DNA of 64,000 bases from a virus. Lineage: Duplodnaviria > Caudoviricetes. A program made the translations under genes and the position numbers. Shown here piece by piece: positions 29,101 through 46,960 of this stretch (its first letter is position 1; the number at the start of each line of letters is the position of its first letter). The DNA is taken from the IMG/VR virus record IMGVR_UViG_3300036820_000018, positions 672 through 64,671 of that record; one strand, 5' to 3'. The notes below the pieces were generated by a model. The model had not been told where the DNA came from, ran no database searches, and saw only the letters and a program-made list of their open reading frames with translations.

Positions 29101-29475
29101 CGCGGAGAGCGATTCCATCTGAGCCAACGGACGCTCGTCGTAGACCTCAGGGTTGACCGCGATCTTGTATTGCTGAGCAGCGAAGGTCTGAAGAAGCGCG
29201 TCAGACGCGGCTAGAGATCCTGCGAGAGCCCCTTGGTTGACCTCAACGAAAGCATTCTTGACGGTCGGCTTCTTCGCCCAACTATCGAGGAAGGCTGAGG
29301 CTGAAGTGAGATCCGCAATGAGCTTTGCGTCATCGACCCCGACCTGTGTGTTCGTGGTCTGCTTGCCGAAGTCGGCGATAGCGGCCTCGTCCGCGGCAAG
29401 GGTCGCGAGGAGGTCACGATCATCGGCTGTGACCGAGATCACGATAGGCGGGAGGTAGCCCCCGTCAATAGCCAC
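26167..29475 (-). CDS. tail tape measure protein
   Basis: 1102 aa, Ala/Gly/Leu-rich, ANPIGL...HWNTVW, periodic F/W repeats, SPSPYF. Confidence 0.92.
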   Translation of the reverse strand: MAIDGGYLPPIVISVTADDRDLLATLAADEAAIADFGKQTTNTQVGVDDAKLIADLTSASAFLDSWAKKPTVKNAFVEVNQGALAGSLAASDALLQTFAAQQYKIAVNPEVYDERPLAQMESLSAMLAAMGAVEIDPQISQAHINSILAELDAITHSRDLAIDLELKNVAAVEAQLAALDAMGDSIDKRLLFALPALSPALAGLASGGGNKDGGLLGGVLASTLTSSLWGDSSGSFINRLLSPLSTLSALFSARFMSLGALAGFGPEHLALTGVGLAGSLAGGGIGAGLLGLGALGTEGVGLGTDLAGIGQASGDIKNVLSAQNNLTAAIQDYGAKSTEAAVAARELNGALSGFNPIARQAVVGAADAIQTFKSLFDQYTGLAEKYGAEIITQAVHVADKFLPIIGKYAAENTKIIQTDLQPLFAWISGPGLAIFTELENKFQQDLPTAMQAFDQGVELLIRMIGLIAPQTGGFIASLDRLFTRLNGSGWSKFAGEIERMISLWRTWDAFLKILIKDVADIFGKTAGLGEGIVVLLTGYLNRLHTVLTTAGDSTGLSTVFKLHKQEVLELIQVLIQFGSIMTQIYIGAAPLLIKLATDALKVINALMRFARGIPGGADALGIGLLLLRFSALRGVITTIGFGALTDALKIVAQGMITLATTAIPALDGALGSMDIAADANPIGLITLAILAFAAAIYELVKHWNTVWSFIKSHSLVSALGLAAIPIVGPFLAAAELIATHWNTVWGFMKSVGAWFSGPFVKFFTSIPKHVEEGFGDLLSFFKALPGEIVSFFESLPGDIEAVFKTLPDLALKAIGSLGYLLGQAVGEAIILMVREAELELKVLYFLFVKMPGIIEGLVVSAVGWLVPTGEHLIAGMINGILGFAPKLWTWFLNLPGKLRSFFSDAVHWLVGSGGSSLSGFLVGIAKFYLQVQKWFLGLPGKLISFFGKAGTWLIDAGVALITGFIHGLESKIPHLTGIINGIINTIKKLPLIGGLIGSPSPYFIKVGEAMMEGLEVGQRNNQSRPISALLDTSNRLKTVPFALGGRSGYGGGGMNLVVNAEFNIYAPGGNAGSIKTAIEQGSAEQFARQALASLSAGAGTRT

Positions 29476-29951
29476 TAGGACCCCACGATCGCAGCAGAGA
29501 TGCGCTCAACGGCGAGCGGGGAGATCGACGGTGTCACCTGATCCCAGGCCCTCAGCATGTAGTGAGCGCCGAACTGGTGGACGCTGTGAACGATCACCTC
29601 GGAGCTTCCGTACTCGTGCTCCATGTAGTGACCGGTGTCTGAGAAGAAGGCCAGATAGGGATGACCGAAGATCGTGCCTCCGAGTTCACGCTGCCTGCCG
29701 TAGATGATCGTTGGGCCAACCTCGGCCTCGTAGATCCCCTGTGCGCCTCTCGGGCCTTGCACGTCGATCGAACGTGCAAGGTCCCCTGGAGGGTTCGTCG
29801 AGTTGTCGGGGTAATCCCCCACGGGAGCGTTCGCTATCCCGGCTAGTTGATAGAGGTGGATCGCGTCCGCGGCGATGGCCTGAGTGGCCTGGTCGATGCG
29901 TTGGGCGAGAGCCCGAAGGCCGGCGATCGTGCCAGCAACCTCAACTGGCAT
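29475..29951 (-). CDS. HK97 gp10-like tail completion protein
   Basis: NAPV...PGDLARSI...VGPTIIYGRQRELGG...YMLRAW. Confidence 0.7.
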   Translation of the reverse strand: MPVEVAGTIAGLRALAQRIDQATQAIAADAIHLYQLAGIANAPVGDYPDNSTNPPGDLARSIDVQGPRGAQGIYEAEVGPTIIYGRQRELGGTIFGHPYLAFFSDTGHYMEHEYGSSEVIVHSVHQFGAHYMLRAWDQVTPSISPLAVERISAAIVGS

Positions 29952-30262
29952 TAGTTGGCCTTTCCTCGTTTGCGCGCTGCCGCGGCCATGACCCGTTGCA
30001 TCCGGGTGTCCTTGCTTGCGCCTGAACTCTGCTTGTCGATCTCATCGCGCTCTCGACGGGCGTCCATGATTGCGAACTGAACGTCGTAGACGGCGTCAAC
30101 CACATGGACTTTTGCCATGAACTCGGTGTGGTCTACGACGGCTCCGGGGAAGAGCTTTCGCCACTGATAGGACTGGTATCTGCGGGAGAGGTCAGAGGAG
30201 ACGGGCTCTGCGCTTGCACCTCGGAGGGTGAGGTCGAGGACGAAGAGCCCCCAGTAGGGGTT
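29951..30262 (-). CDS. tail assembly chaperone, -1 frameshift extension
   Basis: Open -1 frame PYWGLFVLDLTLRG...RKRGKAN*; its TAA overlaps the next ATG. Confidence 0.65.
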   Translation of the reverse strand, partial: NPYWGLFVLDLTLRGASAEPVSSDLSRRYQSYQWRKLFPGAVVDHTEFMAKVHVVDAVYDVQFAIMDARRERDEIDKQSSGASKDTRMQRVMAAAARKRGKAN

Positions 30263-30696
30263 GCGTTCTCCTTGTCATTGCCTTGAGGCTCGAAGTTCTC
30301 AGGCATCGCCGCGCTCATGGCCTCGCCACCTGCTGCTTCGACGAGAGCGCCGTAGATGTCTCTCGGCAGTTTCCCGAAGTCAGCGAAGGTCCGGGGAAGG
30401 GGACGACTGAGAGTCCATGAGTGCAGAGTCCCGAAGGCTGACGCCTTACGGAGATTCTGCATCGCCATGGTCTCTTCAAAGGTGAGAGCGAGCGCCTCGT
30501 AGTCTGCCCTGACCCGAGCGGCGAAGCTCTCGTCGCTCTCGCCGTCCTCCTGGGTGGGAGAAACCCGTCCCGCTATCTTTGCCATCGCCGAGCTGGCAGC
30601 TGTGAAAGCGGCCTGAATCAGCGCTTCGTCATCCCCTGTGAGGTCGTTTCTCTCTTTCAAGAGAGCGGTGCCCCCAGGGATATCTACTTCCCTCAT
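30133..30696 (-). CDS. tail assembly chaperone
   Basis: Directly after tail tube gene; LHSWTL; S/T/P-rich tail after candidate slip site. Confidence 0.75.
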   Translation of the reverse strand: MREVDIPGGTALLKERNDLTGDDEALIQAAFTAASSAMAKIAGRVSPTQEDGESDESFAARVRADYEALALTFEETMAMQNLRKASAFGTLHSWTLSRPLPRTFADFGKLPRDIYGALVEAAGGEAMSAAMPENFEPQGNDKENATPTGGSSSSTSPSEVQAQSPSPLTSPADTSPISGESSSPEPS

Positions 30697-36006: not shown

Positions 36007-37530
36007 TTAGGCCAGTCCTGCGGCGATGTTCGTCAGGACGCCCATAACCGGCGCGGCCCGATTCTCAAAGGCCGTGATCGACCTGATTTCAAAGTCGTAT
36101 CTCGGACCACCGTTAGCGGTGCCCTGTGCGATCCGCGACGCTCCGTAGTCGAAGCGCCAGAAGTCGATCAGGGTCTCGACGCTCAAAGAGGTCGAGATGT
36201 TGGCTCCCGGGAACGGGACCTCGTCGACGACAGCGACGATCTGACCTGGGGGAAGGTGCGGCTGGAGCTCCAAGGTGATGGGCTTGCCGTTCACCGTCTT
36301 GTTCAGGTAGATCGCGACCGCACCACCGGCCACCATGCGAGCACGGCCCGATGAGTCAGTCGGGACCAACCACGTCACGGCCTGTGGGTTGTCCAACAGG
36401 GCATTCGCGATGTCGTTGATCGACTGAGACCCCATCAAGAGTCGCGTCGGGGTGAGCTGGTAGGTGTCGTAGATAGCCCGGTTCATGACGTCGATCTGCT
36501 CGATCGCCGCACCCTGCACGCTCAGCTGGGCTCCGTCGAGGGACTGGTAGTACGCCCCTTGTGTGGTGCCTGTGCCTGGGGTGATGAGGTTGGTGAACGT
36601 CAGGCCGTTACCAAGCTGGTCGGGCTGAGACGCGTAGTCCCCGAGGATCGAAGCCGTGAGGCCGTTCATCCAGTAGGACTGGTAGGACACATCTGCGGTC
36701 GGCACAGAAGTCGGCCCCTGCAGCCCGGAGTTGTAGATCCCAGACAGTGAGGGAACGTTCTGAGCAACCGTCGGGATGGCCGTGATCGTCACGGTGTTGG
36801 TCGTGGTCGTGGTGTAGTAAAACTCCGCACCCGACGAAGACCCGACGTACCAGTCATAGGCCGCAGCACCCTTGACAGCAGTCACCAATCCGGCCACTGA
36901 GGCCGTTGAGCCTGTGGTCGCCTGTGACGCCTCAGAGGAAGCAACCTGGGAACCGCCTCGGTAGTAGTTCACTCCCGAGCGTGCAGCCACCTTGACGTAG
37001 ACCGTCGCTGAGCCTGAGATCGTCCCGCCCGTGGTCGACGCAGCAAGCGTCGGGGTGGCGATCGTCGGCAGAGCGAAGTTCTGCGCGTTGAGCTGGTGGA
37101 TGTCCATACCGATCAGCACCTGGTTGATCGTCTGCATGGTGTCTACAGCCAAGGCATCCGCGTACCCCTGGGCAGTGGCGAGCGCGTCTTCAGACACCGT
37201 GCCACCGAGGGCCAGAGGAACGAACTGGCTCGCGAGGTACTGGTTCTGGATCTTGACGAGCGCACCGGCCTGCTCAAAAGGCGTACCGATGTCGGGCTGG
37301 AGGTTGTTGATGTTGAGCAGGGTCTGCCAGAAAGCGAACCTTGCGCCTTGGTCGGCCCCGTGTCGGGGAGTCGAGTTGAAGAAGGGCGTGTCGACCGGTA
37401 CCAAGCTGTAGAGCTTGGGGTCGAGCATCACACCCGCGATGCCTGTTCCGGTCGTGATGCCGTTCGTGGCGGCCTTGACCATCGACAGTGTTTCCTCGGT
37501 TATCCCGAGGGTGTCGGATCCCCAAGACAT
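36007..37530 (-). CDS. major capsid protein with inserted beta-sandwich domain
   Basis: Follows protease and scaffold; LVPVDTPF...; insert TPTLAASTTGG...AVKGAAAYDWYVG; ends GVLTNI. Confidence 0.85.
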   Translation of the reverse strand: MSWGSDTLGITEETLSMVKAATNGITTGTGIAGVMLDPKLYSLVPVDTPFFNSTPRHGADQGARFAFWQTLLNINNLQPDIGTPFEQAGALVKIQNQYLASQFVPLALGGTVSEDALATAQGYADALAVDTMQTINQVLIGMDIHQLNAQNFALPTIATPTLAASTTGGTISGSATVYVKVAARSGVNYYRGGSQVASSEASQATTGSTASVAGLVTAVKGAAAYDWYVGSSSGAEFYYTTTTTNTVTITAIPTVAQNVPSLSGIYNSGLQGPTSVPTADVSYQSYWMNGLTASILGDYASQPDQLGNGLTFTNLITPGTGTTQGAYYQSLDGAQLSVQGAAIEQIDVMNRAIYDTYQLTPTRLLMGSQSINDIANALLDNPQAVTWLVPTDSSGRARMVAGGAVAIYLNKTVNGKPITLELQPHLPPGQIVAVVDEVPFPGANISTSLSVETLIDFWRFDYGASRIAQGTANGGPRYDFEIRSITAFENRAAPVMGVLTNIAAGLA

Positions 37531-37615: not shown

Positions 37616-39229
37616 CTAGCTGATGCCAGAGCTTGCTTTCACCGCAGCGATGGCCTGTGGGTAAGGCATCCCTCGCGCGTGAAGCCGCTCGACAACCTTT
37701 GCGTGCTCGGTTGACCGGTTCATGACGGCCTTCTGGAGCTCGTAAGGGTCATTGCCCTTCTCAGCCTCAGTGACCTTGTCGTCGAGAGCCTTGAATACCG
37801 AAGTTTCACTTGATGCTGCTGCACGCAGGGCGGCCACTCCACCCATTGCGTTGATGCCGGCCTGGTTGAGCACGGGGAGGGCTTGGGGCTGGCTGGCCAT
37901 TTTCTGGAGCAGCTCGTTGCCTTCCAGCACCGACTTCGCCAATGCTTCAAAAGCGCCAGGTGCCGCCTTCGCTGCCTGCTTGGCAGCCTTTGCAACACGC
38001 TTCGCTTCGAGCTTCGCGGCGAACACGGGGTCAGTCTTCGCCTTCTCGGCCATCGCCTCTTCATCCTTGGCGTTGGCCTTTTCCTTCATCTTCATCTTCT
38101 TCTTCTCTGCTTTGGCTTCGGCGGCCTTGCGCTCTGCCTTCTGGGCCCGACGAGCTTCGTCGCGCTCGTCCAGAGCCTTGAAAAGCTCGTCAACCTGCAT
38201 GTCCTCTATCTCCTTGGTAGTTACGGATTGAGGAGGCAGGCCCAGAATGCGCCTTGCCTCGGGAACTGATATCGCCTGGCTTTTAACGAGCAGGGCAACA
38301 GCCTCTGCTTTCGCCTGGCTTTCCTTAGAAGCAGAAGGGGACTTCTCCTCTGCCTTTTCACGCTGAGCCAGTTCGTCGATTAACTCACCGGCTTCATCTG
38401 CGAGATTTGCGTCGTGCTTCTCCCATTCGGCATCGCCGGGGGACTTGCGAGCGTTGTGCTCGGTCTGTGTCTTGGCCTCTGATTCGGCCTTCGCGTCGTC
38501 CGCGTCACCGTCAGGAGCCGGGTCACCTCGACCGTCGCCTTCTTTGAAGGACTTACGGGAGTTCGCTCGAGTTTGAGACTTCGCCTCGTTGAGAGGGAGT
38601 GTCTTGTTCGGAGCAGTCGATCCGTGTCCTTCACCGTCTGCTGTGGGAGCGGGGTGGCCCTCGAAGGCGACGTGCATGGTTCCGAAGCCCTCGCGGGTCA
38701 CGTCCATGTGCACAGCGCCCATGTGCGGGTGGTTCTCTCGGGTCTGCTCGTCTGAGGGGCGCGAGACCCCACCGTCTTGGTGGGATTCCTGGGATGCCCC
38801 TTCCTTCTTAGCGTCTCCCTCCCCGATGTCGGGGTAGCGACGGTGGACAGCGGCCTTGATCTTTGACTGCTGTTCAGGAGAGGCGTTGTGCAGCATTGAC
38901 AGAGCAGCGCGAGCGTGGTTCTCGTCGTGGATCGGATACTCGCGAGAGTCGGGCAGAGCAAAAGCTGACTTAGGGAGGGCGTTGCGGGCCTTGGCCTTGA
39001 GCTTCGCCTTCTCGACAAGAGTATCGAAGTCGCTGAACTGCTCTTTGCAGGCGAGGCATTTGGACTCTCCGCAGAAGCCATCGAAGCGAGCTTTCTTCAA
39101 CTCGTCCTTGCCGACCTCATCGACTGTGGCCGCAGCTTTGGCAAGCAACCCCGGAAACCCGCTCGCGCCTTCCTTGACCAGGTGAAACTCGTCTGGATCG
39201 AGATCTGTGAACTCGGTCATGATGGTCAT
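37616..39229 (-). CDS. capsid scaffold-like protein with a DUF6582-like module
   Basis: K/A/E-rich coiled coil; RNALPKSAFALPDSREYPIHDENHARAAL. Confidence 0.7.
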   Translation of the reverse strand: MTIMTEFTDLDPDEFHLVKEGASGFPGLLAKAAATVDEVGKDELKKARFDGFCGESKCLACKEQFSDFDTLVEKAKLKAKARNALPKSAFALPDSREYPIHDENHARAALSMLHNASPEQQSKIKAAVHRRYPDIGEGDAKKEGASQESHQDGGVSRPSDEQTRENHPHMGAVHMDVTREGFGTMHVAFEGHPAPTADGEGHGSTAPNKTLPLNEAKSQTRANSRKSFKEGDGRGDPAPDGDADDAKAESEAKTQTEHNARKSPGDAEWEKHDANLADEAGELIDELAQREKAEEKSPSASKESQAKAEAVALLVKSQAISVPEARRILGLPPQSVTTKEIEDMQVDELFKALDERDEARRAQKAERKAAEAKAEKKKMKMKEKANAKDEEAMAEKAKTDPVFAAKLEAKRVAKAAKQAAKAAPGAFEALAKSVLEGNELLQKMASQPQALPVLNQAGINAMGGVAALRAAASSETSVFKALDDKVTEAEKGNDPYELQKAVMNRSTEHAKVVERLHARGMPYPQAIAAVKASSGIS

Positions 39230-39687
39230 GCGACGCTCCTTGTAACTCGGGCGAGGGATTCAGGGCTGGCTTCGTCGACGAGGCAGGCTCCCTGGATCGA
39301 ACCTGACCCCCAGACACCGACTTCGACCTCTTCCCAGGTCTTCTGGGTGCAGATGACCCCGATGAGCCAATCGCCCTCTTCGATCTTCTGTTCTGATCCG
39401 TCGATCGCTTTCATCACCCAAGGGACTGAGTTGCGGTAGACGTAGTTCTCGACAACCTTGAAGGCGTCTTCACCACCAGGCTTGTGGCCGGTGCCGCCCT
39501 TGAATCCGTTGGCCGCAAAGCGCCAGCAGGCTTTCTCGACTACTCGGGGGGACGCGAGGTCAATCCGACCGTCAGCACCCTTACGAGGCATCTTGTTGGG
39601 GCTGTAGCCGACCATCAGCAAGAACCGGTCAGGCGATCCCTCAGGCGCGAAGACTTTCTTCAGGTTCAGCTTGTTCTTCTTCGACAC
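39226..39687 (-). CDS. XkdF-like prohead protease
   Basis: VGYSP...D...VEKACWRF...H...VVENY...GDWLIGV...W...GSIQG. Confidence 0.75.
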   Translation of the reverse strand: MSKKNKLNLKKVFAPEGSPDRFLLMVGYSPNKMPRKGADGRIDLASPRVVEKACWRFAANGFKGGTGHKPGGEDAFKVVENYVYRNSVPWVMKAIDGSEQKIEEGDWLIGVICTQKTWEEVEVGVWGSGSIQGACLVDEASPESLARVTRSVA

Positions 39688-39844: not shown

Positions 39845-40206
39845 CGACCTTCGATTGAGATTGAACAGGTCACCGAGGTGCCTGTCAGGGTCCACCTAAG
39901 GCGTGCCTGGGCGGTGAAGACGGCGTTGGAGCCAGGGGGGATGCCGGTGCCCGAGGACTGAGCGCACCCTGGTCCCAAGAACACTGAGCTCGTCCCAGGG
40001 GCCGAGAGGGCAGCAGCGCTCTCGTAGCACGGGTACCAGGCTTCGTCATAGCCGAGGCGCTCAAAGAAGAACGTGATCGCGCCTGAGCCAGACACCGCGG
40101 TGACCGTGACGTCGAGGGCGACCGTGGTGATCGCATTCGTCGCGAAGTTCGGGGTGACTCCTGGCGTAGTGATCGCGGTGGCCCTCTGGCTGTAGAGAGA
40201 GGCCAT
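39841..40206 (-). CDS. small beta-sandwich structural-like protein
   Basis: LDVTVTAVSG...ARLRWTLTG...SIS. Confidence 0.6.
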   Translation of the reverse strand: MASLYSQRATAITTPGVTPNFATNAITTVALDVTVTAVSGSGAITFFFERLGYDEAWYPCYESAAALSAPGTSSVFLGPGCAQSSGTGIPPGSNAVFTAQARLRWTLTGTSVTCSISIEGR

Positions 40207-40667
40207 TAGAAGTTGAAGTAAGGGATTTTGCAGAGCGCCCCGTTGATCACCGTGAGGATGTAGCCCACAGGTGCTCCCGGGAGGCCTCCTGCGTCGCTCC
40301 AGGTCCAGGCCGGTGAGCCCGTGTAGGTGATCGCGATGGTGGCACCGGCAGGGAGGAAATAGAGGCCGTCAGCGGTTCCAGCGGAGACTCCGTTGATCGA
40401 GACCCCGGTCACGGTGCCACCTGTCAGGTTCACCAGGACTCCGGTGGAGTTGGTGTTCGTGACAGGAGTGGTCGTTGTCGGGAAGCTCGGAGTCGTGACG
40501 GTTGGGTTGGTGCCCGCTGTCGCCGAGGTGTAAGTCGAGGCCCCGGTGAACCCGGTGAAGGCCGCGTATGCGGTTACGGCCTTCGTGGGCGTCTTCGCGA
40601 TGAAGTTAGAGGCCTCGTTCTCTTTGGCCGTCAGGTTCTTCAGGTATGGAGCAGGGGTAGAAGCCAT
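40206..40667 (-). CDS. Thr-rich structural-like protein
   Basis: VTNT...GGTVTGVSING...LPAGATIAITY. Confidence 0.6.
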   Translation of the reverse strand: MASTPAPYLKNLTAKENEASNFIAKTPTKAVTAYAAFTGFTGASTYTSATAGTNPTVTTPSFPTTTTPVTNTNSTGVLVNLTGGTVTGVSINGVSAGTADGLYFLPAGATIAITYTGSPAWTWSDAGGLPGAPVGYILTVINGALCKIPYFNF

Positions 40668-40679
40668 GAAGGCGTCCTT

Positions 40680-41033
40680 TCAGTCTGGTGAAATCGTCTT
40701 CCAGGGGACCAAAACGGTCGTCGGAGAGTCGTGCATAATCTGAGCGGTGCCTGCGGAGTTGTCTATCAAGACGGCGACATTGTGCTTTGCGCAATAAGCG
40801 GCTTTTGCCTTTCCCGGAGGATTGACAAAGACCTTCAACTTGTCGTAATGACCTTTCATCCCTAAGCCAGCGAGCTTTTCTTTCTTCATTTTCTTTTCGG
40901 CTTTGGTGACCGGTAAAACGTGGCTCCCGCTTAGCACCGTGACTTTGTGCCCGTGCTTATGAAGCTTTCTCATGAGCTCCCGGATGGCCGGGCTGGAATC
41001 GAGCGTGCCATCCAAATCGCACGCAATCTTCAT
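40680..41033 (-). CDS. cap-less HAD family phosphatase
   Basis: IACDLDGTL, VLSG, K, LIDN; visibly lower GC than neighbours. Confidence 0.75.
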   Translation of the reverse strand: MKIACDLDGTLDSSPAIRELMRKLHKHGHKVTVLSGSHVLPVTKAEKKMKKEKLAGLGMKGHYDKLKVFVNPPGKAKAAYCAKHNVAVLIDNSAGTAQIMHDSPTTVLVPWKTISPD

Positions 41034-41374
41034 GGAGTTAGCTCGCCATTAGTGATCCAACCGTGCCAATGTGACCCGTCTCGGTAGGACTGGCCATTCT
41101 CATCGACACGCCAGCACTCCACGTCGATCGAGGGGATGACCGTCAGGTTCGGAGCAGTGCCTGAGACGTCCCACATGCCGTGTGGAGGGGCTGCAGCAGC
41201 GTCAGTTGTTCGCCACGAGATCCGACTGGGAAGACCGGGCTCAATGGGCTTCGTGTTCGGCAGGACGATCCACCAACACTCTCGACCGTCTTTGTCACCG
41301 GACTCGTAGCGCCACATCATCCCCGGCTCTTCGTCCTCAGGAAAAGGTTTGTCGACAATGCGAAGTGCAGTCAT
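41030..41374 (-). CDS. DUF6527-like protein
   Basis: WDVSG...LTVIPSI...HWHGWITNG. Confidence 0.55.
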   Translation of the reverse strand: MTALRIVDKPFPEDEEPGMMWRYESGDKDGRECWWIVLPNTKPIEPGLPSRISWRTTDAAAAPPHGMWDVSGTAPNLTVIPSIDVECWRVDENGQSYRDGSHWHGWITNGELTP

Positions 41375-42072
41375 CGCTGGCTCCTGGCCGGCGCGACTGA
41401 GCATCGGCACCGAGGGTGGATCGGAGGCATCGCTGAAGCGTCCGAGATCGGGTGTGGGTTGGCGTCTTTGATGTCCACGCACACAGGACAGGCTCCGACG
41501 TGGTTGAGCAGATCGAACATCGCGATACCTGCACGCTTAAACAGGTCGACCGAGGCCGTGGTCATGGCCCTGTTGACCTCTGTCCTCGATATCAGGGCCG
41601 CTCTGTCAGGGTCATTGATCAGTAGACCGATCTGTTCAGCCAACTCGGTGACGTCTGCGTCGGTCCAAGGGACGTGAGCGACCCGTCCGGCGACGAAGGC
41701 CTCGACCAGAGAGACGATGAGGTCCCTTGTGTGGTCAGAGATGCCCTTTATCAGGCCTCCGAGTTGCTGAGAGACGTTCTCGAGGCCCGGAACAGTCCCA
41801 TGTACCCGTCCGGGTGCCCACGCGGACCAGTCAACGGCGTTCACGGCGCCTTCGAGGGCGTCCCCAGTGGCCTTCTGAACGCTTACACCGTGTCCAGAGG
41901 CATCTTTGGCTCCCGCAAGCCATGAATCGGCCCACAGACGCTCTAGGGCGGTCCTGAGAGGCCCTGTGTCGAGCGGTATCGAGGCTATGAGGCTCTCGAT
42001 GACCCCTCCGGGGGTTCCGACTGGGCCTGTGATCCCTTCGACGCGTTGAGCGATCTGTCTCGGGCGCACCAA
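41371..42072 (-). CDS. MuF-like minor head protein
   Basis: RAALISRTEVNRA...CPVC...PPIHPRCRC. Confidence 0.85.
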   Translation of the reverse strand: MVRPRQIAQRVEGITGPVGTPGGVIESLIASIPLDTGPLRTALERLWADSWLAGAKDASGHGVSVQKATGDALEGAVNAVDWSAWAPGRVHGTVPGLENVSQQLGGLIKGISDHTRDLIVSLVEAFVAGRVAHVPWTDADVTELAEQIGLLINDPDRAALISRTEVNRAMTTASVDLFKRAGIAMFDLLNHVGACPVCVDIKDANPHPISDASAMPPIHPRCRCSVAPARSQR

Positions 42073-42149
42073 ACGGCGGATTCCCTTAGCGATCTTGGGC
42101 GTGTGGAAGGAAACGAGGTCTTCCTCTCGATGTCCGCCCGGCCCGGGCC

Positions 42150-45100
42150 TCAGGACACTTTTGGGCGGTTCACCTCGGCTTTGACGATCATCACCGTGTC
42201 GCCGGGTTCTAGGGGCTCAGGGAGGATCAGACGGCCTGAGTAGTCGATCGTGGCCTTCTGAGCTTGCTCCAGGATTGGCTCTAGGACCTCGAGGCCTTCA
42301 CGGACCTTGTCGCGGATGACCTTGTCGTCGAGATCGTCGGTGTCCCACCAAGAGACTGCCGCGATCTCGTCTCCGTCAGGCTCCCCGAGGGAGACATCGT
42401 CCTCAGAGTCCGTCGAGTAGACGAAACCCTGGAAGATCCCGTCGTCTGAGCGCCAGGTGCCAACCATCTTCGCGTCGGTGGGCATCTTGCAGCCCGTCTC
42501 TTCGGACCATTCACGCACAGCTGCGTCGTGAGCCGACTCGCCATCGTCTAAGTGGCCAGCTGGTGTCTCCCAAGAGGCTCCATTACCGTCATCGTCTTTG
42601 TTGCCGCGACGGACGAGCAGAACCTTGCCTGAGTCTCGAGCGACGAGAGCAACTCCAGCGACTTCGGGACCCTTGGAGTCGTGAGCCTTAGCGGCCCCGC
42701 CGAAGGCGAAGACCCGGCACTCGTCTCCGCGGTGGACCGAGAGATGGGTGAAGGTGACAGGCGTGGGCGGGATCGGAGCCGGGAGATCTTCGTTGGAGTC
42801 CATGTACGCGAGCGTCATATGCGGATGAAAGTCGCTGTGCTGGCTCCCGTTGAACTGCTCGAGAGGTCCGCGAAGGGCTTCGATGCCCGGGATCTCGGGC
42901 TTAGCCCAAACCGGAATTAGCCAGTCACTCGACTCAGAAGCAGGGAAGGTACCCCGGCCACCGATAGTGCCTGACATTGGTCCACGCTGGGCGCTCGCGA
43001 CTCTGGCAGCTACCGCACAGATCTTCTCGAAGGTGGCGTCATCAGCGATCTTGCCGCAGTAGACGATCGTGATGTGCTGGTCGGGGACCCCATTCTCCAT
43101 CACCGGGATCAAGCCAGGGGGAACGTCGAGGGAGACCATCGTTGAGACCGGAGAATGCACCCCAGCCGTTGCCTTAGCGAAGGCCGCGTCAACCTCTTCG
43201 CGGGTTGTGGCCTTAGACAGCTCTGTCCAGACCGCGTCATAGACCCGTGTGGAAATCGCTGAGTTGTCGAAGTGACGCGGGAGGTCGTTCTTGGCGACGC
43301 GCTTTTGTGAGGCACGCTTCCAGCGCTTTAGGTCGAGCTTCTCTTCGATCTCGTCTTCAGGATCGTCGGGGTCCTCTGCGTAGTGAGCGCCCGCGATACC
43401 TGTCGCGATCCCGATCCCAGCGGTTGCCTCTTTAAGAGTCCTTCTCGACGCCGTTCCCTGATCTACGCGTCCGGGGGCTGCGGACCCGCGCGGTCTGGCG
43501 GGATTGGACCCGTTGGACGCGGCGGGCTTCTTTGCGCCCACTAGCGGTGCGGTCGGTGCTGGAGTTAGTGGGCCGGGGCCGAGTGGCCCCCCCACTTTTG
43601 GGCGTGCCGGGACCTTTCGCCCAGCGGCCGTGTCGTGCTGCCTCGCCTGGCTGTAGGCAGGAGGACCTGGAGCATCGGGATCTGGGCCCGGGGTGCCGGG
43701 AAGGACGAGCTCGATCGGCCGAACGGTCCCTGGACGTGGGGCTCCGGTCAAGGGGTCCACGTCTCCCGCGACACCGAGCAGGTAAGAGATCGGGATCGGG
43801 CCGAGGCGGTTCGAGTCGAAGAACCTCGGCACCTTCTCCTCGGGATTGATCGGGTAACCCAGGACCTTGTCTCTGACTTCGTCAGGAGACTCTGCGCCGA
43901 TCGAGACGTAGATCTGGTGAGACTGCGCCTCCATGAGGCGGTCTTCCTTCTCGCGACCGGTGTCGAAGCGGAGCTGCACCGGGAGACCGAGGTCCTCCTG
44001 GGTGATCGCGTCCATGATGTCTTCGTAGTAGCCGACGTGGGGAAGTGAGTTGATCCTGAACTGCGTGTCCATCTGGGTGTCAGAGGTGCTGCGGTTCACG
44101 TCGTCGGTGAAGCCGAGGTCCTGGGGCATCATCATGAATGCACCTGTAGTCCGGCGCATCACGTACTCAGCGATGTCAGGGTCGAACTGCTGCGGCTTGT
44201 AAAACTCGATCTCGGTGCCGTGAGGCAGCCATCTGAGCCCCCAGCGCTCTGACTGGTCCCCGTAGGTCCAGTCGTTGTAGTCCTCTTGCCATTCAGCAAG
44301 AGAGTCAGGGTCTGACTGGTCCTCGGGAGCCATCGCGAAGGCCTCAGGGACGTTGCCCGTGGTGAAGAACTGCAAGAAGTAGGTCTGGAGGCGCAGGTCG
44401 GTGTTCGCGTTGACCAGGACCGTCTCGATCGGTGCGATGCCATAGGGGTCCTCTGTATGAGGCCACATGGGCTCGTAGATCAGGTCCTCAGATCTCAGCC
44501 AGTCCCAGGGGATTCCTTGGATGAACTGCTGGAAGGCCGGAGCCTCGCCGATCGGCTCTGCACCGAAGTAGTCAAGCATCGGGGCGAAGAGCGTCCCGTC
44601 GGCTACAGGCAGGCTGATCAGGCGACCTGCGCGATCACGCTGACGGTAAAGGGTCCCGCAATCGAAGCGCCAGACGTCGGTCGCGTGCTTGCAGAGCCAG
44701 TTACGAAGCGTGTTGCCCGAGCCCGCGATCACCTTGCCCGACTCAGGGTCGAGCCTCTTGTCGGGGCGACGCCAGAACTCTTTAGCGGCCGCGATCTCTT
44801 TGACGCAGTTCTCCTCGTACCCGTCCATGACCTCGAAGCGCACTCGCATCGAGCGGAGGTCTTGGATCGCGTGGCGGTAGCAGATGGTCGCCACGTCGTA
44901 GGAGGTGATCAGGTGCCGGATCGTCTCGAAAGGCATCCGGCCAGGGCGCGTCTGGGTCGAGATGTTGCGCCCGGTGTCGTAGTCGCGCTCTCTCGGCCTG
45001 CGATTGTAACCGAAGTACGGGGTCAGTGGCCTGCCTGGGGCAAATGGCGAGACCCAGTCAATGCCCTGCTCGTGCAGAGCGTTTTCGATCTCGATCGGGG

Positions 45101-45386
45101 TGATCGTGGACCCCGAGGGATTGATCGAGTTAGCTGTCTGGCGAGCGAGCACCTGGGCAGAGACGGGCTTTGAGCGAGCAAGGTGAGCCGTGGTTCCTGA
45201 CTGTGCGCCCTGGACGTTCCAGACCGAGTTGTTGCGCAGGGCCTTCGCGACGAGATCGACCTCGCGACGTTCTCTCGGACGCAGGTCCATAAGGGCCAGG
45301 TCGTTTTTCGCGACCTTGATGGCCTTGGCCACGGTCTCAGAGTTGTCCCGTGGGGCGCGCAGACGCTCAGTCAACCTCAGAGCCAT
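42150..45386 (-). CDS. portal protein fused to 2H-phosphoesterase and Nudix hydrolase domains
   Basis: Portal core (PYGIAPIE, FFTTGNVP, PQDLGFTDDVNRST) after terminase; HITI and HMTL; Nudix box GHLDDGESAHDAAVREWSEETG. Confidence 0.88.
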   Translation of the reverse strand: MALRLTERLRAPRDNSETVAKAIKVAKNDLALMDLRPRERREVDLVAKALRNNSVWNVQGAQSGTTAHLARSKPVSAQVLARQTANSINPSGSTITPIEIENALHEQGIDWVSPFAPGRPLTPYFGYNRRPRERDYDTGRNISTQTRPGRMPFETIRHLITSYDVATICYRHAIQDLRSMRVRFEVMDGYEENCVKEIAAAKEFWRRPDKRLDPESGKVIAGSGNTLRNWLCKHATDVWRFDCGTLYRQRDRAGRLISLPVADGTLFAPMLDYFGAEPIGEAPAFQQFIQGIPWDWLRSEDLIYEPMWPHTEDPYGIAPIETVLVNANTDLRLQTYFLQFFTTGNVPEAFAMAPEDQSDPDSLAEWQEDYNDWTYGDQSERWGLRWLPHGTEIEFYKPQQFDPDIAEYVMRRTTGAFMMMPQDLGFTDDVNRSTSDTQMDTQFRINSLPHVGYYEDIMDAITQEDLGLPVQLRFDTGREKEDRLMEAQSHQIYVSIGAESPDEVRDKVLGYPINPEEKVPRFFDSNRLGPIPISYLLGVAGDVDPLTGAPRPGTVRPIELVLPGTPGPDPDAPGPPAYSQARQHDTAAGRKVPARPKVGGPLGPGPLTPAPTAPLVGAKKPAASNGSNPARPRGSAAPGRVDQGTASRRTLKEATAGIGIATGIAGAHYAEDPDDPEDEIEEKLDLKRWKRASQKRVAKNDLPRHFDNSAISTRVYDAVWTELSKATTREEVDAAFAKATAGVHSPVSTMVSLDVPPGLIPVMENGVPDQHITIVYCGKIADDATFEKICAVAARVASAQRGPMSGTIGGRGTFPASESSDWLIPVWAKPEIPGIEALRGPLEQFNGSQHSDFHPHMTLAYMDSNEDLPAPIPPTPVTFTHLSVHRGDECRVFAFGGAAKAHDSKGPEVAGVALVARDSGKVLLVRRGNKDDDGNGASWETPAGHLDDGESAHDAAVREWSEETGCKMPTDAKMVGTWRSDDGIFQGFVYSTDSEDDVSLGEPDGDEIAAVSWWDTDDLDDKVIRDKVREGLEVLEPILEQAQKATIDYSGRLILPEPLEPGDTVMIVKAEVNRPKVS

Positions 45387-46960
45387 TAGCCCACCTTTAC
45401 GGGAGGTGCGACCTCCTCGGGACTTGCTTGACACCACACGCAGTAGGTGCGATCGGGATTCCAGCGGTGGTCACAGATCATCCGAGCACGCTTGCGCTCT
45501 GAACGAACGCCTTGGCGACGACGGGCCATCCGGCGCTCCATGCGAGCCTTGTCATCGAGGATCGCCTCCTCACCTCGATGCTCTAAGCGCTGGGCTGCGT
45601 CACGTTCCATGAACTCTCTGAAGTTCGCCCCGACTCCACCTTCGGAGGTGATGAGGAGGTAGCATCCCATCCCGATGGTGACCGCTTGGTCGTCGTGACC
45701 ACCTCTTGTGTGATCGAGGCGTGTGACACCTGGGGAGGACTCTTTGAGCTTTAGGGCGAGAAGCTCTTCTTTCAACTCTCGAGTGTTCGGGATGAAGATT
45801 TGGCGGTTCCTGAAGGTGCTCGTGAGAGCGCTCGCGACCTCACCGACTGAGGAGGCCGTGAACTTGAACTCTTTGGCCCGCACGCCTCTGCGGTTGAGAC
45901 GCTGCACCCCGTCAACGAACTGCTGAGGGTCGGCGTGAGCGTGTGCCCGGTTGTACCGAAAGGATGCCTCGACGATCCAGTCAACCACCCTGTCGATCTG
46001 AACGGGCTTCTTCTTCGATCCCCTCCAGCGCTCGACGTGGTCGACGACGACGCGCTTGGGACCTCTCGGGGCCTTGGGGTCGTAGGGCTCCTTGTGCATG
46101 ATCGTCATGACCGTGGCGTCGTTCACCACACCGATGTCAACGAGGATTATGTACTTAACGCCCTTTTGCGGATCGAGGGTCGTATACGGCTGAGCGGCTG
46201 CTTCCCAGTCCTCTTCGCGGATAGCTGCGTCTTCGTCCTCTGACCAGAGGTTGAGGACCAGGCGGTCGTATTCAGAGGGACGAAGCTGGAAGCGCAATGA
46301 AGCGAGCTCGTCGGGACTCAGCCAAGGGACCGGGCCGGGGACTTCGTGGACTCGCCACATCTTGTCCACCGAGCACTTGTCGATGACCTCTTTGGACCAG
46401 TGAGAAGGCTCGCCGGCCGAGCTCATCACCACGAGCTTGCAGTTAGGGACCTTCGGAGCAGCTGATTGGAGGGCCGACCATACGCGTCGCGCTCCACGAG
46501 TGTCTGGCCACTGACAGAACTCGTCAGCTACTAAGAAGTGAGCGTCGCGCAGGCCCCAGGACCCTGAGTCTGACTGGGCCAGGACGCGGATCCATGCGCC
46601 GTTCGGAGCAACGATGCGCTGGCTCTCGACGATGATCGCACCTTCGAGCTCTTCGGTACGGGCTACAAAGCCCGCTGCGGCGTCGATGATGATCGCGGCC
46701 TGATTAGTCGAGGCAGCGACGATGTGACCGTTAGCGAGGGGCCTGGCGTCTGTCATGAGCCAGGAGAGGCCGAGACCAGCGATGTCCGTCGATTTTGAGG
46801 CACCTCTTGCTCGGGTGAGGAAGTGCCACGTCGCTGCGGGGCGCTCGTTTAAGAGGATGGCTTCGGCGTCGGTCTTCTGGAAGGACCTCGCTACCTCACC
46901 CCAGCGGTCTCCGGTTTCGACCCGGAGCCCATACATGAGGTCTAGGGCGCCCTCACTCAC
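45386..46960 (-). CDS. terL: terminase large subunit
   Basis: RARGASKS Walker A, LVADE Walker B, SSAG, VDIG...D, HDDQ. Confidence 0.9.
   Translation of the reverse strand: MSEGALDLMYGLRVETGDRWGEVARSFQKTDAEAILLNERPAATWHFLTRARGASKSTDIAGLGLSWLMTDARPLANGHIVAASTNQAAIIIDAAAGFVARTEELEGAIIVESQRIVAPNGAWIRVLAQSDSGSWGLRDAHFLVADEFCQWPDTRGARRVWSALQSAAPKVPNCKLVVMSSAGEPSHWSKEVIDKCSVDKMWRVHEVPGPVPWLSPDELASLRFQLRPSEYDRLVLNLWSEDEDAAIREEDWEAAAQPYTTLDPQKGVKYIILVDIGVVNDATVMTIMHKEPYDPKAPRGPKRVVVDHVERWRGSKKKPVQIDRVVDWIVEASFRYNRAHAHADPQQFVDGVQRLNRRGVRAKEFKFTASSVGEVASALTSTFRNRQIFIPNTRELKEELLALKLKESSPGVTRLDHTRGGHDDQAVTIGMGCYLLITSEGGVGANFREFMERDAAQRLEHRGEEAILDDKARMERRMARRRQGVRSERKRARMICDHRWNPDRTYCVWCQASPEEVAPPVKVG

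Follow-up and report, generated by a model that had tools for sequence, protein, structure and literature searches.

This report concerns the portal gene of a virus (Caudoviricetes) in a stretch of 64,000 nucleotides (nt), referred to as the window, which covers nearly all of the linear, 64,671-base virus record IMGVR_UViG_3300036820_000018 (rated 82% complete). In this gene a portal core and a proline-rich linker are followed by a 2H phosphoesterase domain and a Nudix hydrolase domain. The sequence at its 3' end makes it probable that the gene is read in two ways by means of a -1 frameshift, yielding a portal-2H-Nudix protein of 1078 amino acids (aa) and a 1338-aa protein, which carries a MuF domain in addition. 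Most ribosomes would terminate at the TGA codon and release the shorter form. Some would slip back by one base on the heptamer C CCA AAA (42165-42159), aided by an upstream GAGGTG, read 262 further codons and append the MuF (SPP1 gp7-like) domain. Because one message would be read in two ways, portal subunits with and without MuF would be made in a fixed ratio.

The end of the portal open reading frame (ORF) reads cgC CCA AAA Gtg tcc TGA. The heptamer, with a G following at 42158, is of the canonical X XXY YYZ type, is positioned in the zero frame and lies nine bases ahead of the stop codon. A Shine-Dalgarno (SD)-like GAGGTG (42176-42171) is separated from it by a 5-nt spacer, and AAA GCC, encoding K-A, lies further upstream. 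Starting from the heptamer the -1 frame reads PKSVLRPGPGGHREEDLVSFHTPKIAKG.. / PKSVLRPGPGGHREEDLVSFHTPKIAKGIRRLVRPRQ.. and stays open for 262 codons through MuF, so that the trans-frame product would consist of 1076 + 262 = 1338 aa. The sequence CCCAAAAG occurs twice in the window, against 1.13 occurrences expected. This count by itself is not significant; of importance is the location of both copies in the zero frame of the portal gene. A zero-frame slippery heptamer, an overlapping -1 ORF encoding a conserved protein, and conservation of the site beyond what the protein requires (see below) were all found.

The MuF ORF as listed starts with TTG at 42072. No ATG, GTG or TTG precedes this codon in the -1 frame, and the conserved segment RPGPGGHREEDLVSFHTPKIAKG precedes every start codon of the MuF frame. 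The stretch before TTG 42072 matches the junctions of relatives in which portal and MuF are fused in frame (..LPKVLRPGPGGHREEELVQF in P0007 and ..PPKVPRPGPGGAREQ in P0006), the homology of the -1 ORF setting in two residues behind P-K. In L004, the closest viral relative at 71% identity, this place reads ccC CCA AAA Gtg TGA, and the -1 frame runs 258 codons into MuF. The junction (41900-42500) is also covered by contigs of three sequencing runs from two other studies, all soil metagenomes. The strain represented there is about 96% identical, with 23 differences in 601 bases and no gaps or indels. Nineteen of its 21 substitutions are synonymous. A substitution at 42153 changes no residue in either of the overlapping frames, and another at 42124, in what would be the spacer ahead of TTG 42072, leaves the -1 frame product unchanged.

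Two trivial origins of the frame change were considered and rejected. A sequencing or assembly error at the A-run was discarded because split and fused loci alike have exactly four A's, which excludes a homopolymer miscount, and because the independent runs contain no indel. Transcriptional slippage was discarded because a run of four A's is too short for it.

The junction was then compared across the family, for which viral and metagenome loci were pooled and duplicates removed. Portal and MuF were found together in 98 distinct loci, fused in 76 and split in 22. Of the split loci, 14 have MuF in the -1 frame and eight have it in the +1 frame. When the terminal 150 nt of the portal ORF were inspected, a canonical zero-frame heptamer was present in 12 of the 14 loci of the -1 type, as compared with one of the eight loci of the +1 type. 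The heptamers are CCCAAAA (eight), TTTAAAA (two), GGGAAAA and CCCTTTC (one each). The -1 frame of eight split loci is open for 252-489 codons and leads into MuF, and in the split -1 frames homology to the fused relatives begins one or two residues after P-K. When all 130 distinct loci were considered, zero-frame CCCAAAA was found after the portal core in 77, usually 70-90 codons before the MuF domain. The +1 split loci (L012/L013, L026, L038, L147, L149 and others) have overlaps of 14-152 nt, seven of the eight lacking a canonical heptamer; separate initiation, another kind of recoding or errors are possible explanations for them.

In the fused relatives the same cassette could work in reverse, early termination in the -1 frame producing a portal that lacks MuF. 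In the fused loci with a heptamer at the junction (n=56), a -1 stop codon follows within one codon in 23 and within 11 codons in 46, with a median distance of 4 codons. At control positions (50 random ones per ORF) the corresponding values were 5.9%, 18.8% and 46 codons. The codons at the site are also unusual. The P-K of the junction is encoded by CCA AAA with C before and G after it in 43 of 59 fused and in all seven split -1 instances, whereas elsewhere in the same ORFs CCA accounts for 8.7% of the proline codons, AAA for 15.4% of the lysine codons, and CCA-AAA for eight of 176 other Pro-Lys pairs. Pairing with the anti-SD sequence in the 30 nt upstream of the heptamer had a mean energy of -8.0 kcal/mol (n=61), compared with -4.7 kcal/mol for 1830 controls, and reached -6 kcal/mol or better at 90% of the heptamer sites and 31% of the controls. 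In many loci the SD-like element is provided by the K-A-G-G codons (AAG GCG GG..).

Similar features were seen in the 25 loci examined on contigs of isolates and genomes. Four Kitasatospora prophages are split in the -1 manner with CCCAAAAG, 20 codons being left in the zero frame and 259 in the -1 frame. Loci in Streptomyces, Arthrobacter and a complete Pseudarthrobacter genome are fused and have CCCAAAAG with a -1 stop within 1-14 codons. Another X XXY YYZ sequence occurs near the junction in three of the 25 loci, GGGAAAA twice (followed by G and by A) and CCCAAAT once. The exchange of one slippery sequence for another is what should be expected of a functional site. The only related cultured phages found were the Arthrobacter phages Sonali and Mufasa8, on which a literature search returned nothing relevant. 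Their gp3 proteins (995 and 1000 aa), annotated as 'portal and MuF-like fusion protein' / 'portal protein', are single portal-Nudix-MuF chains of the same portal clade (39% identity). Like the window they have a proline-rich linker, Nudix, the helical segment, ..GGGxPKA.. encoded with C CCA AAA G and followed by MuF, and, downstream, an XkdF-type protease and a capsid protein of the same family. They differ from it in lacking 2H, in having Nudix ahead of the helical segment and in encoding portal and MuF in one frame. Since their -1 frame ends nine codons past the heptamer, slipping would shorten the protein rather than lengthen it.

Both polarities have counterparts among known programmed -1 frameshifts. 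In Escherichia coli dnaX (tau/gamma) an upstream SD-like element assists a -1 shift that leads to early termination, and the phage tail chaperones G/GT are reportedly made by a programmed -1 frameshift (Xu, Hendrix and Duda, 2004). The cassette shares the X XXY YYZ heptamer with both and the SD-like element with dnaX; termination of the dnaX type would correspond to the fused relatives and extension of the G/GT type to the window. It is unlike them in the gene pair concerned, portal and MuF, in the occurrence of both polarities within one family, in having no downstream stem-loop shown and in being based on sequence. A portal-MuF frameshift was not described in the full-text literature searched, which did not cover most subscription journals and supplements; in the accessible text of one relevant paper (PMC6316719) the frameshift mentioned concerns tail genes. 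As far as the searchable literature shows, a conserved portal-MuF slip cassette that would work in both directions within one family is new. Programmed slip sites do not seem to have been described for portal genes in the searchable papers.

Several observations weigh against the frameshift. Slippage is a prediction from sequence, in the window as in every other family member. The loci are related to each other and the above counts overstate the number of independent events; moreover, 53 of the 130 loci have no CCCAAAA after the core. P-K-[AVG] is also conserved as protein, and part of the signal may reflect protein-level constraint. The RNA downstream of the heptamer (77-79 nt) proved no more stable than shuffled sequences (z 0.46 for the window and 1.13 for L004), and a stimulatory downstream structure is therefore not shown. 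In the fused loci the zero-frame product is the long one, which requires either efficient slipping or a portal with MuF on all its subunits. According to PMC7302621, Microbacterium phages with portal-MuF fusions were reported without a maturation protease, which suggests that such fusions need no cleavage. Finally, MuF could start by itself at TTG 42072 or GTG 42069, with AAGGGA 9 nt upstream.

The SD-like AAGGGA, the lack of a significant downstream RNA structure and the eight split loci with MuF in the +1 frame, where the cassette cannot help, would all be compatible with two ordinary genes, MuF being translated from TTG 42072 and the heptamer with its open -1 frame being leftovers of a recent split. 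However, the split -1 layout coexists with an intact heptamer in lineages that are 40-71% identical to the window and in four isolate genomes. Rare codons have been kept at the site, early -1 stops are enriched in the fused relatives, the conserved N-terminal segment of MuF cannot be translated from any in-frame start codon, and the overlap and the putative spacer show synonymous substitutions in the ~96% identical strain. An origin of MuF by ordinary initiation, with no recoding, is thus considered most improbable, and frameshifting is kept as the preferred reading.

According to this frameshift model, the portal dodecamer would carry the C-terminal arms inside the procapsid, and the enzymes would thereby be placed next to the DNA end that exits first. 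Portal C-termini face the capsid interior, in agreement with a location of the arms inside the head. The two enzymes would act on nucleotide-derived host molecules. The late operon has the order terminase, portal with two enzyme domains, slip cassette, MuF, protease, probable scaffold and capsid. A precedent for a few MuF copies at the portal is provided by SPP1, in which, according to PMC6316719, the portal protein gp6 binds gp7 and brings a few copies of it into the procapsid, and phage lacking gp7 infect poorly. In both cases MuF/gp7 would be tied to the portal, enter the procapsid in few copies and support the start of infection; the tie is non-covalent and formed between products of separate genes in SPP1, and would be covalent, on a share of subunits set by frameshifting, in the window (PMC6316719). 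By analogy, a slip site that adds MuF to a minority of the subunits (split loci) or removes it from some (fused loci) could be the covalent equivalent of the SPP1 arrangement.

Known phage recoding sites set the ratios of tail chaperones or of capsid variants. If the proposal is correct, a portal-MuF slip site would extend ratio-setting recoding to the packaging vertex and would explain how a few MuF copies, together with anything fused to them, get onto a twelve-subunit ring. Since the site is present in cultured Arthrobacter phages and in prophages of Streptomyces, Kitasatospora and Arthrobacter, it is directly testable. For annotation it would mean that in the split loci of this clade 'portal' and 'MuF' are to be joined, and that in the fused loci a shorter product is to be expected as well.

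The assignment of the gene to the portal family is supported by sequence matches and by its place in the head module, where it immediately follows the gene for the large terminase subunit. The ORF extends over 42150..45437 (minus strand), 1095 open codons when counted from a GTG. Translation almost certainly begins with the ATG at 45386, which is fused to the terminase stop codon in an overlapping TAATG and is preceded by a purine-rich stretch; the product starting there has 1078 aa and is identical to the database protein P0002. Residue numbers in the following are counted from the GTG (protein P0001), and subtraction of 17 gives the numbering from the ATG. Pfam Phage_portal matched residues 315-524 with 27 bits, which is under the cut-off of 39.1, and PHROGs identified a portal (phrog_2662, E 3.3e-20). 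In a tblastn comparison the core was 39% identical to Sonali gp3 (E 2e-99), which itself passes Pfam Phage_portal (PF04860) at 77.1 bits.

The 2H domain matched Pfam 2_5_RNA_ligase2 (PF13563) at residues 788-885 with 25.4 bits, just below the cut-off of 27, and TIGR02258 (NCBIfam) with 22.5 against a cut-off of 65.7. PF13563 was matched at E <= 0.001 by 38 of 43 large 2H-bearing relatives (see below), in which the His and Thr of both HxT motifs, HITI and HMTL in the window, are invariant or at least 90% conserved. A search of the Protein Data Bank (PDB) with the 2H sequence gave no match at E <= 0.1. An AlphaFold2 model of residues 755-1095, built on a 19-row alignment, had a confidence (pLDDT) above 90 in the 2H domain, and the best PDB match of this fold in Foldseek was 5h7e, the 2',3'-cyclic phosphodiesterase CPDase of Deinococcus radiodurans (E 7.9e-8, TM 0.61 on the target). 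T4 Acb1, a 2H-fold anti-CBASS nuclease made as a free early protein, was absent among the 43 PDB rows shown for the Foldseek search with the cargo model. It resembles the window protein in being a phage protein with the 2H fold and two HxT/S motifs, and differs in not being a virion fusion and in that the nearest solved fold of the window 2H is the bacterial phosphodiesterase.

The Nudix domain was recognized by Pfam (PF00293, residues 927-1037) with 68.9 bits at a cut-off of 21.1, by a sequence search in the PDB (1sjy, E 7.4e-9) and by Foldseek matches to DR1025, RppH, Dcp2 and ADP-ribose pyrophosphatases. Its Nudix box, GHLDDGESAHDAAVREWSEETGC, follows the consensus G-x5-E-x7-R-E-U-x-E-E-x-G-U, with W and C instead of I, L or V in the U positions. 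The architecture of the gene, both 2H motifs and the intact Nudix box are thus as described in the first-pass annotation of this DNA, and the fold comparison of the individual domains bears out the two enzyme identities. Neither enzyme came near the cut-off of an NCBIfam equivalog, the best score for Nudix being 39.3 bits versus 200. No substrate can therefore be assigned to 2H or Nudix; the substrates are guesses, which weakens the enzymatic part of the model presented at the beginning. Most likely the targets are nucleotide-derived host molecules. Second messengers of immunity, derivatives of ADP-ribose and damaged RNA ends are the candidates, each of them named for these domain families in PMC5512222 and PMC9503650.

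The distribution of the cargo domains was determined in the 120 listed portal relatives (of 164 found), which were scanned with small hidden Markov models (HMMs) made from the window's own segments. The portal core was detected in all 120, Nudix in 79, MuF in 63 and 2H in nine. The order 2H-Nudix was found in the window phage and P0007, Nudix-2H in P0010-12, Nudix-Nudix in the closest relatives (P0003, 4, 5, 8 and 15), 2H-MuF in P0016, P0025 and P0113, and Nudix..2H-MuF in P0100; portals without cargo also occur. The portal core was broken by 300-400 residues in P0032, P0034, P0036, P0040, P0043, P0062 and P0085, and likewise in P0087, P0092, P0096, P0100, P0103 and P0113. Several of the interrupted portals have LAGLIDADG, Hint or intein-splicing Pfam domains, and inteins appear to be common in the portal genes of this clade.

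In a full HMMER scan the 2H domain matched 1060 cluster representatives at E <= 0.001, 92 of them at E <= 1e-30, and most of these relatives are embedded in proteins of 500-2900 residues. For a Pfam scan 43 of the 150 listed 2H relatives were picked, only by size (504-1966 aa) and total length. NUDIX was present in 16, Phage_portal in 15, Phage_Mu_F in nine and an Arr-type ADP-ribosyltransferase in six of these large proteins, and GNAT, Zeta-toxin, ART-PolyVal and other domains in one or two each. Two copies of 2H were noticed in P0140, P0141, P0143, P0145, P0146, P0148 and P0150 (1275-2372 aa), of which P0140 has Nudix as well. The tandem payload, which had been singled out as the notable part of this portal, is by these counts and by the varied domain orders one shuffle among many, and such combinations are common.

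Portal-2H and portal-Nudix fusions, and the general idea of their injection, are not new, because they are in print. Iyer et al. 2017 (PMC5512222) and 2022 (PMC9503650) describe, in the accessible parts, fusions of MuF or Portal with domains of the 2H and NudE-like Nudix types and predict that such domains are packaged, injected and degrade immune nucleotides. The systems in those parts are like the window in carrying 2H or NudE-like Nudix on Portal or MuF, beside terminase, in being predicted to be packaged and injected, and in being predicted to degrade nucleotide immune signals or to process ADP-ribose or RNA ends. They are unlike it in that these parts do not speak of a portal-MuF frameshift, a junction motif or a portal arm with a capsid-like motif; the portal-2H-Nudix architecture may already stand in the figures or supplementary lists, which were outside this comparison. 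The composition of the 2H family corresponds to the 'polyvalent protein' concept presented by Iyer et al. 2017 (PMC5512222). The earlier proposal of fused C-terminal cargo ending inside the head is supported, and for exactly these domains it had already been published (PMC5512222, PMC9503650). The locus is a clean example of shuffled 2H/Nudix modules on a virion protein, and it sharpens the question whether such cargo is released or stays tethered.

If the cargo stays tethered, the enzymes may never be delivered, the fusion serving co-expression and late action of the free portal against structure-triggered defences, with enzymes that reach the head being a by-product. Portals stay in the virion at ejection, and in the late operon translation of the portal gene is coupled to that of the terminase gene. 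In addition, the free shuffling of the domain order (2H-Nudix, Nudix-2H, Nudix-Nudix) implies that the enzymes need no fixed geometry. A free-standing gene, however, would be equally good for late expression. The same enzymes occur on MuF and on polyvalent proteins together with ART, GNAT and Zeta-toxin, which are read as injected effectors in PMC5512222 and PMC9503650, and MuF, whose SPP1 counterpart aids the start of infection (PMC6316719), is on the same chain. Cargo that is never delivered is judged very unlikely.

The first-pass annotation had regarded K-A motifs as release sites at the borders of the cargo domains. All motifs quoted there exist: AFAK-ATAG, GAAK-AHD and QAQK-ATID in the portal, SVQK-ATG in MuF, LLAK-AAA in the 537-aa protein and SMVK-AAT in the capsid protein; a further one, IVK-AEV, lies near the portal end. 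With the -1 continuation the polyprotein is probably larger than was then assumed. In the AlphaFold2 cargo model the three border sites lie within or at the margin of regions whose pLDDT is below 50. Within the window portal the number of K-A dipeptides, seven versus 3.95 expected from composition, is unremarkable. Across the family, by contrast, the association with cargo borders holds: on the upstream side 43 of 84 cargo domains have a K-A within 20 aa, and on the downstream side 41 of 83 have one within 22 aa, compared with 11.5% of 2400 random 22-aa windows of the same 120 proteins, these sequences being related and the counts non-independent.

The K-A borders belong to longer conserved units. 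One is the terminal part of a helical segment (..TRE.VD.AFAK-A), another is an invariable leader in front of 2H (K-A-x-x-G-Y-x-L-S-P-R-S-G-M), and the third and most prominent, here called the tail motif, reads K-A-x(2-5)-P-K-[AVG]. It is located at the extreme C-terminus of portals that lack MuF, right after AFAK-A in cargo-less portals, and between cargo and MuF in fused portals. A regular expression for it matched 33 of the 120 relatives, versus 2.2 +/- 1.5 in residue shuffles, and gave a single match in the 74,471 translated residues of the window, at the portal end. For this C-terminal K-A..P-K stretch an RNA signal, composed of an SD-like element and a slippery heptamer, is the better explanation. 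AKAHDSKG, which follows the window 2H, aligns with AKAGGARPKA at the C-terminus of P0010-12, and the K-A after 2H looks like a degenerate copy of the tail-motif junction. The alignment suggests that modules were inserted at the junction and carried junction copies along. At least part of the 'K-A release site' pattern is therefore probably an RNA signal or its relics.

A different candidate for a site of docking or processing was found in the linker. The N-terminal 40 residues of the capsid protein are highly conserved over 46 related loci (..TEETL..I.K-A-Q-T-x-G-I...T-G-x-x-G-x-D-L) and read ..TEETLSMVK-AATNGITTGTGIAGVMLD.. in the window, and a look-alike, TLKEATAGIGIATGIAGAHY, is present in the linker of the window portal. 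A profile of the capsid motif detected the look-alike in 55 of the 120 portal relatives at E <= 10, about 38 of them with a domain E < 0.05. In 80 IMG/VR and two annotated phage loci the matches at E < 0.01 comprised 46 capsid ORFs and 40 others. All of these 40 are portal ORFs by size and position, and no other ORF has the motif. The two copies are more alike within loci than between them (identity 0.583 versus 0.494 +/- 0.020 for 20 distinct pairs), a likeness reached by one of 5000 permutations. The shared motif is possibly due to a common docking partner (scaffold or shell) or to a common protease site, and it provides a starting point for understanding the docking or processing of the portal arm. 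The capsid model gave no hint where the motif binds, since the N-arm (residues 1-11 and 16-43, pLDDT below 50) is unplaced in it, and a complex prediction with capsid residues 44-507 and portal linker 662-716 (score 0.00, mark 0.32) was uninformative either way.

These data bear on the idea that the XkdF-like protease cuts after Lys at the K-A borders and thereby frees 2H and Nudix in the head, the enzymes leaving with the DNA and destroying immune nucleotides before any phage gene is expressed. K-A is about fourfold enriched at cargo borders in the family, and the three border sites lie in low-confidence, probably flexible stretches. The protease gene is present, as had been stated, an N-terminal Lys is conserved in 46 aligned capsids (mostly K-A, K-G in one group), and the portal linker contains the K-(E/A)-x-T-x-G-I look-alike. 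The HK97 protease cleaves its capsid protein after a Lys, and the portals of P2, lambda and Mu are trimmed by their proteases. On the other hand, Peptidase_S78_2 has no known specificity, and neither a PDB sequence search nor NCBIfam gave a match for the protease. The terminal K-A belongs to the frameshift cassette, the K-A after 2H resembles a decayed cassette copy, and the sites within conserved module leaders fit recombination scars equally well. Furthermore, the residue after the conserved linker Lys varies (A, E, D, C, G), and if portal and MuF were separated by a protease at their junction, a frameshift at this place would serve no purpose. Synthesis of the portal with and without MuF by frameshifting argues that the junction is managed by translation rather than by proteolysis. 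Release of the enzymes by this protease is thus unlikely, and the same degree of doubt applies to cleavage at K-A borders specifically. Cleavage somewhere in the portal arm has a better chance, though one still short of even, and it could possibly take place elsewhere, for example at the capsid-like linker motif. Of the first-pass interpretation as a whole, the domain identities and the head-internal cargo are supported, and the unusual tandem and the K-A motifs as protease release sites are not.

A second C CCA AAA G is located at 43602-43596, in the zero frame, 53 codons past the portal core and with AAGGTC 11 nt upstream. CCCAAAA is found at the same place in the linker (42-55 codons after the core) in nine of 148 distinct loci, where the -1 frames are 36-80 codons long and encode Arg/Gln-rich tails. 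Either the linker heptamer is a second slip site, from which a bare portal would result, or it has arisen by chance in a Pro/Ala-rich stretch. In an extended version of the model, three isoforms would arise from the two cassette copies: slipping at 43602-43596 would give a bare portal with a short basic tail, reading without a slip portal-2H-Nudix, and slipping at 42165-42159 portal-2H-Nudix-MuF. The motif shared with the capsid would then be the site of the XkdF-like protease, and a cut there would free the whole arm, with or without MuF, as a polyvalent effector leaving with the DNA. This combination is considered distinctly unlikely, and the two-product frameshift is preferred. The positions of the features are collected in Table 1.

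Table 1. Positions of the portal gene, its parts and neighbouring head genes in the window
Feature	Position	Strand	Evidence or remark
Terminase large subunit	45386..46960	-	phrog_9, E 5.1e-25
Portal-2H-Nudix gene	42150..45386	-	Zero-frame product 1078 aa; stop TGA 42152-42150
Portal core	43761..45125	-	PHROG portal match; tblastn to Sonali gp3; own HMM
Pro-rich linker behind portal core	43440..43700	-	Contains the second zero-frame C CCA AAA G, 43602-43596
Look-alike of the capsid N-arm motif (TLKEATAGIGIATGIAGAHY)	43380..43439	-	Profile matches
Conserved helical segment ending ..TREEVDAAFAK-A, then first cargo border	43170..43337	-	
2H phosphoesterase domain	42687..43172	-	HxT motifs HITI, 43076-43065, and HMTL, 42821-42810
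Nudix hydrolase domain	42327..42659	-	Nudix box 42557-42489
Proposed -1 frameshift cassette	42150..42182	-	AAA GCC (K-A), SD-like element, slippery heptamer, stop
-1 frame continuation through MuF / SPP1 gp7-like domain	41371..42162	-	262 codons after P-K
MuF / SPP1 gp7-like ORF as listed	41371-42072	-	Starts with TTG 42072
XkdF-like prohead serine protease	39226..39687	-	Peptidase_S78_2, PF14550, 40.4 bits, cut-off 24
Lys/Ala/Glu-rich protein of 537 aa between protease and capsid genes	37616..39229	-	No family
Major capsid protein, 507 aa, HK97 fold	36007..37530	-	N-arm motif at 37506-37408

Among the neighbouring genes, the position of the gene for the 537-aa protein suggests a scaffold; an NCBIfam scan gave no family for this protein or for the protease. 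The AlphaFold2 model of the capsid protein has the HK97 fold, with capsids of phages SU10, Pa223 and SPO1 as the best PDB matches, and PDB sequence searches with the capsid protein and with the protease returned nothing useful. The tape-measure gene is located further downstream of the capsid gene, and in the two ORFs upstream of it, 30133-30696 and 29475-29951, a canonical zero-frame heptamer was not found. Prophage relatives were detected in genomes of Streptomyces, Kitasatospora, Streptacidiphilus, Arthrobacter and Pseudarthrobacter, and the public runs that contain the sequence are soil metagenomes. Since the relatives among cultured phages and prophages are actinobacterial, the host is very probably an actinobacterium, the virus being a soil phage of Actinomycetota.

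Four small ORFs are situated between the MuF ORF and the protease gene. An ORF of 117 aa in this interval (40680-41033, minus strand) has relatives in 26 of 82 phage loci and no PHROGs family. A Thr/Gly-rich ORF of 153 aa in the head module (40206-40667, minus strand) resembles two PHROGs, one of tail spikes and one unknown, at their C-terminal ends; a tail-spike-like match is odd inside a head module.

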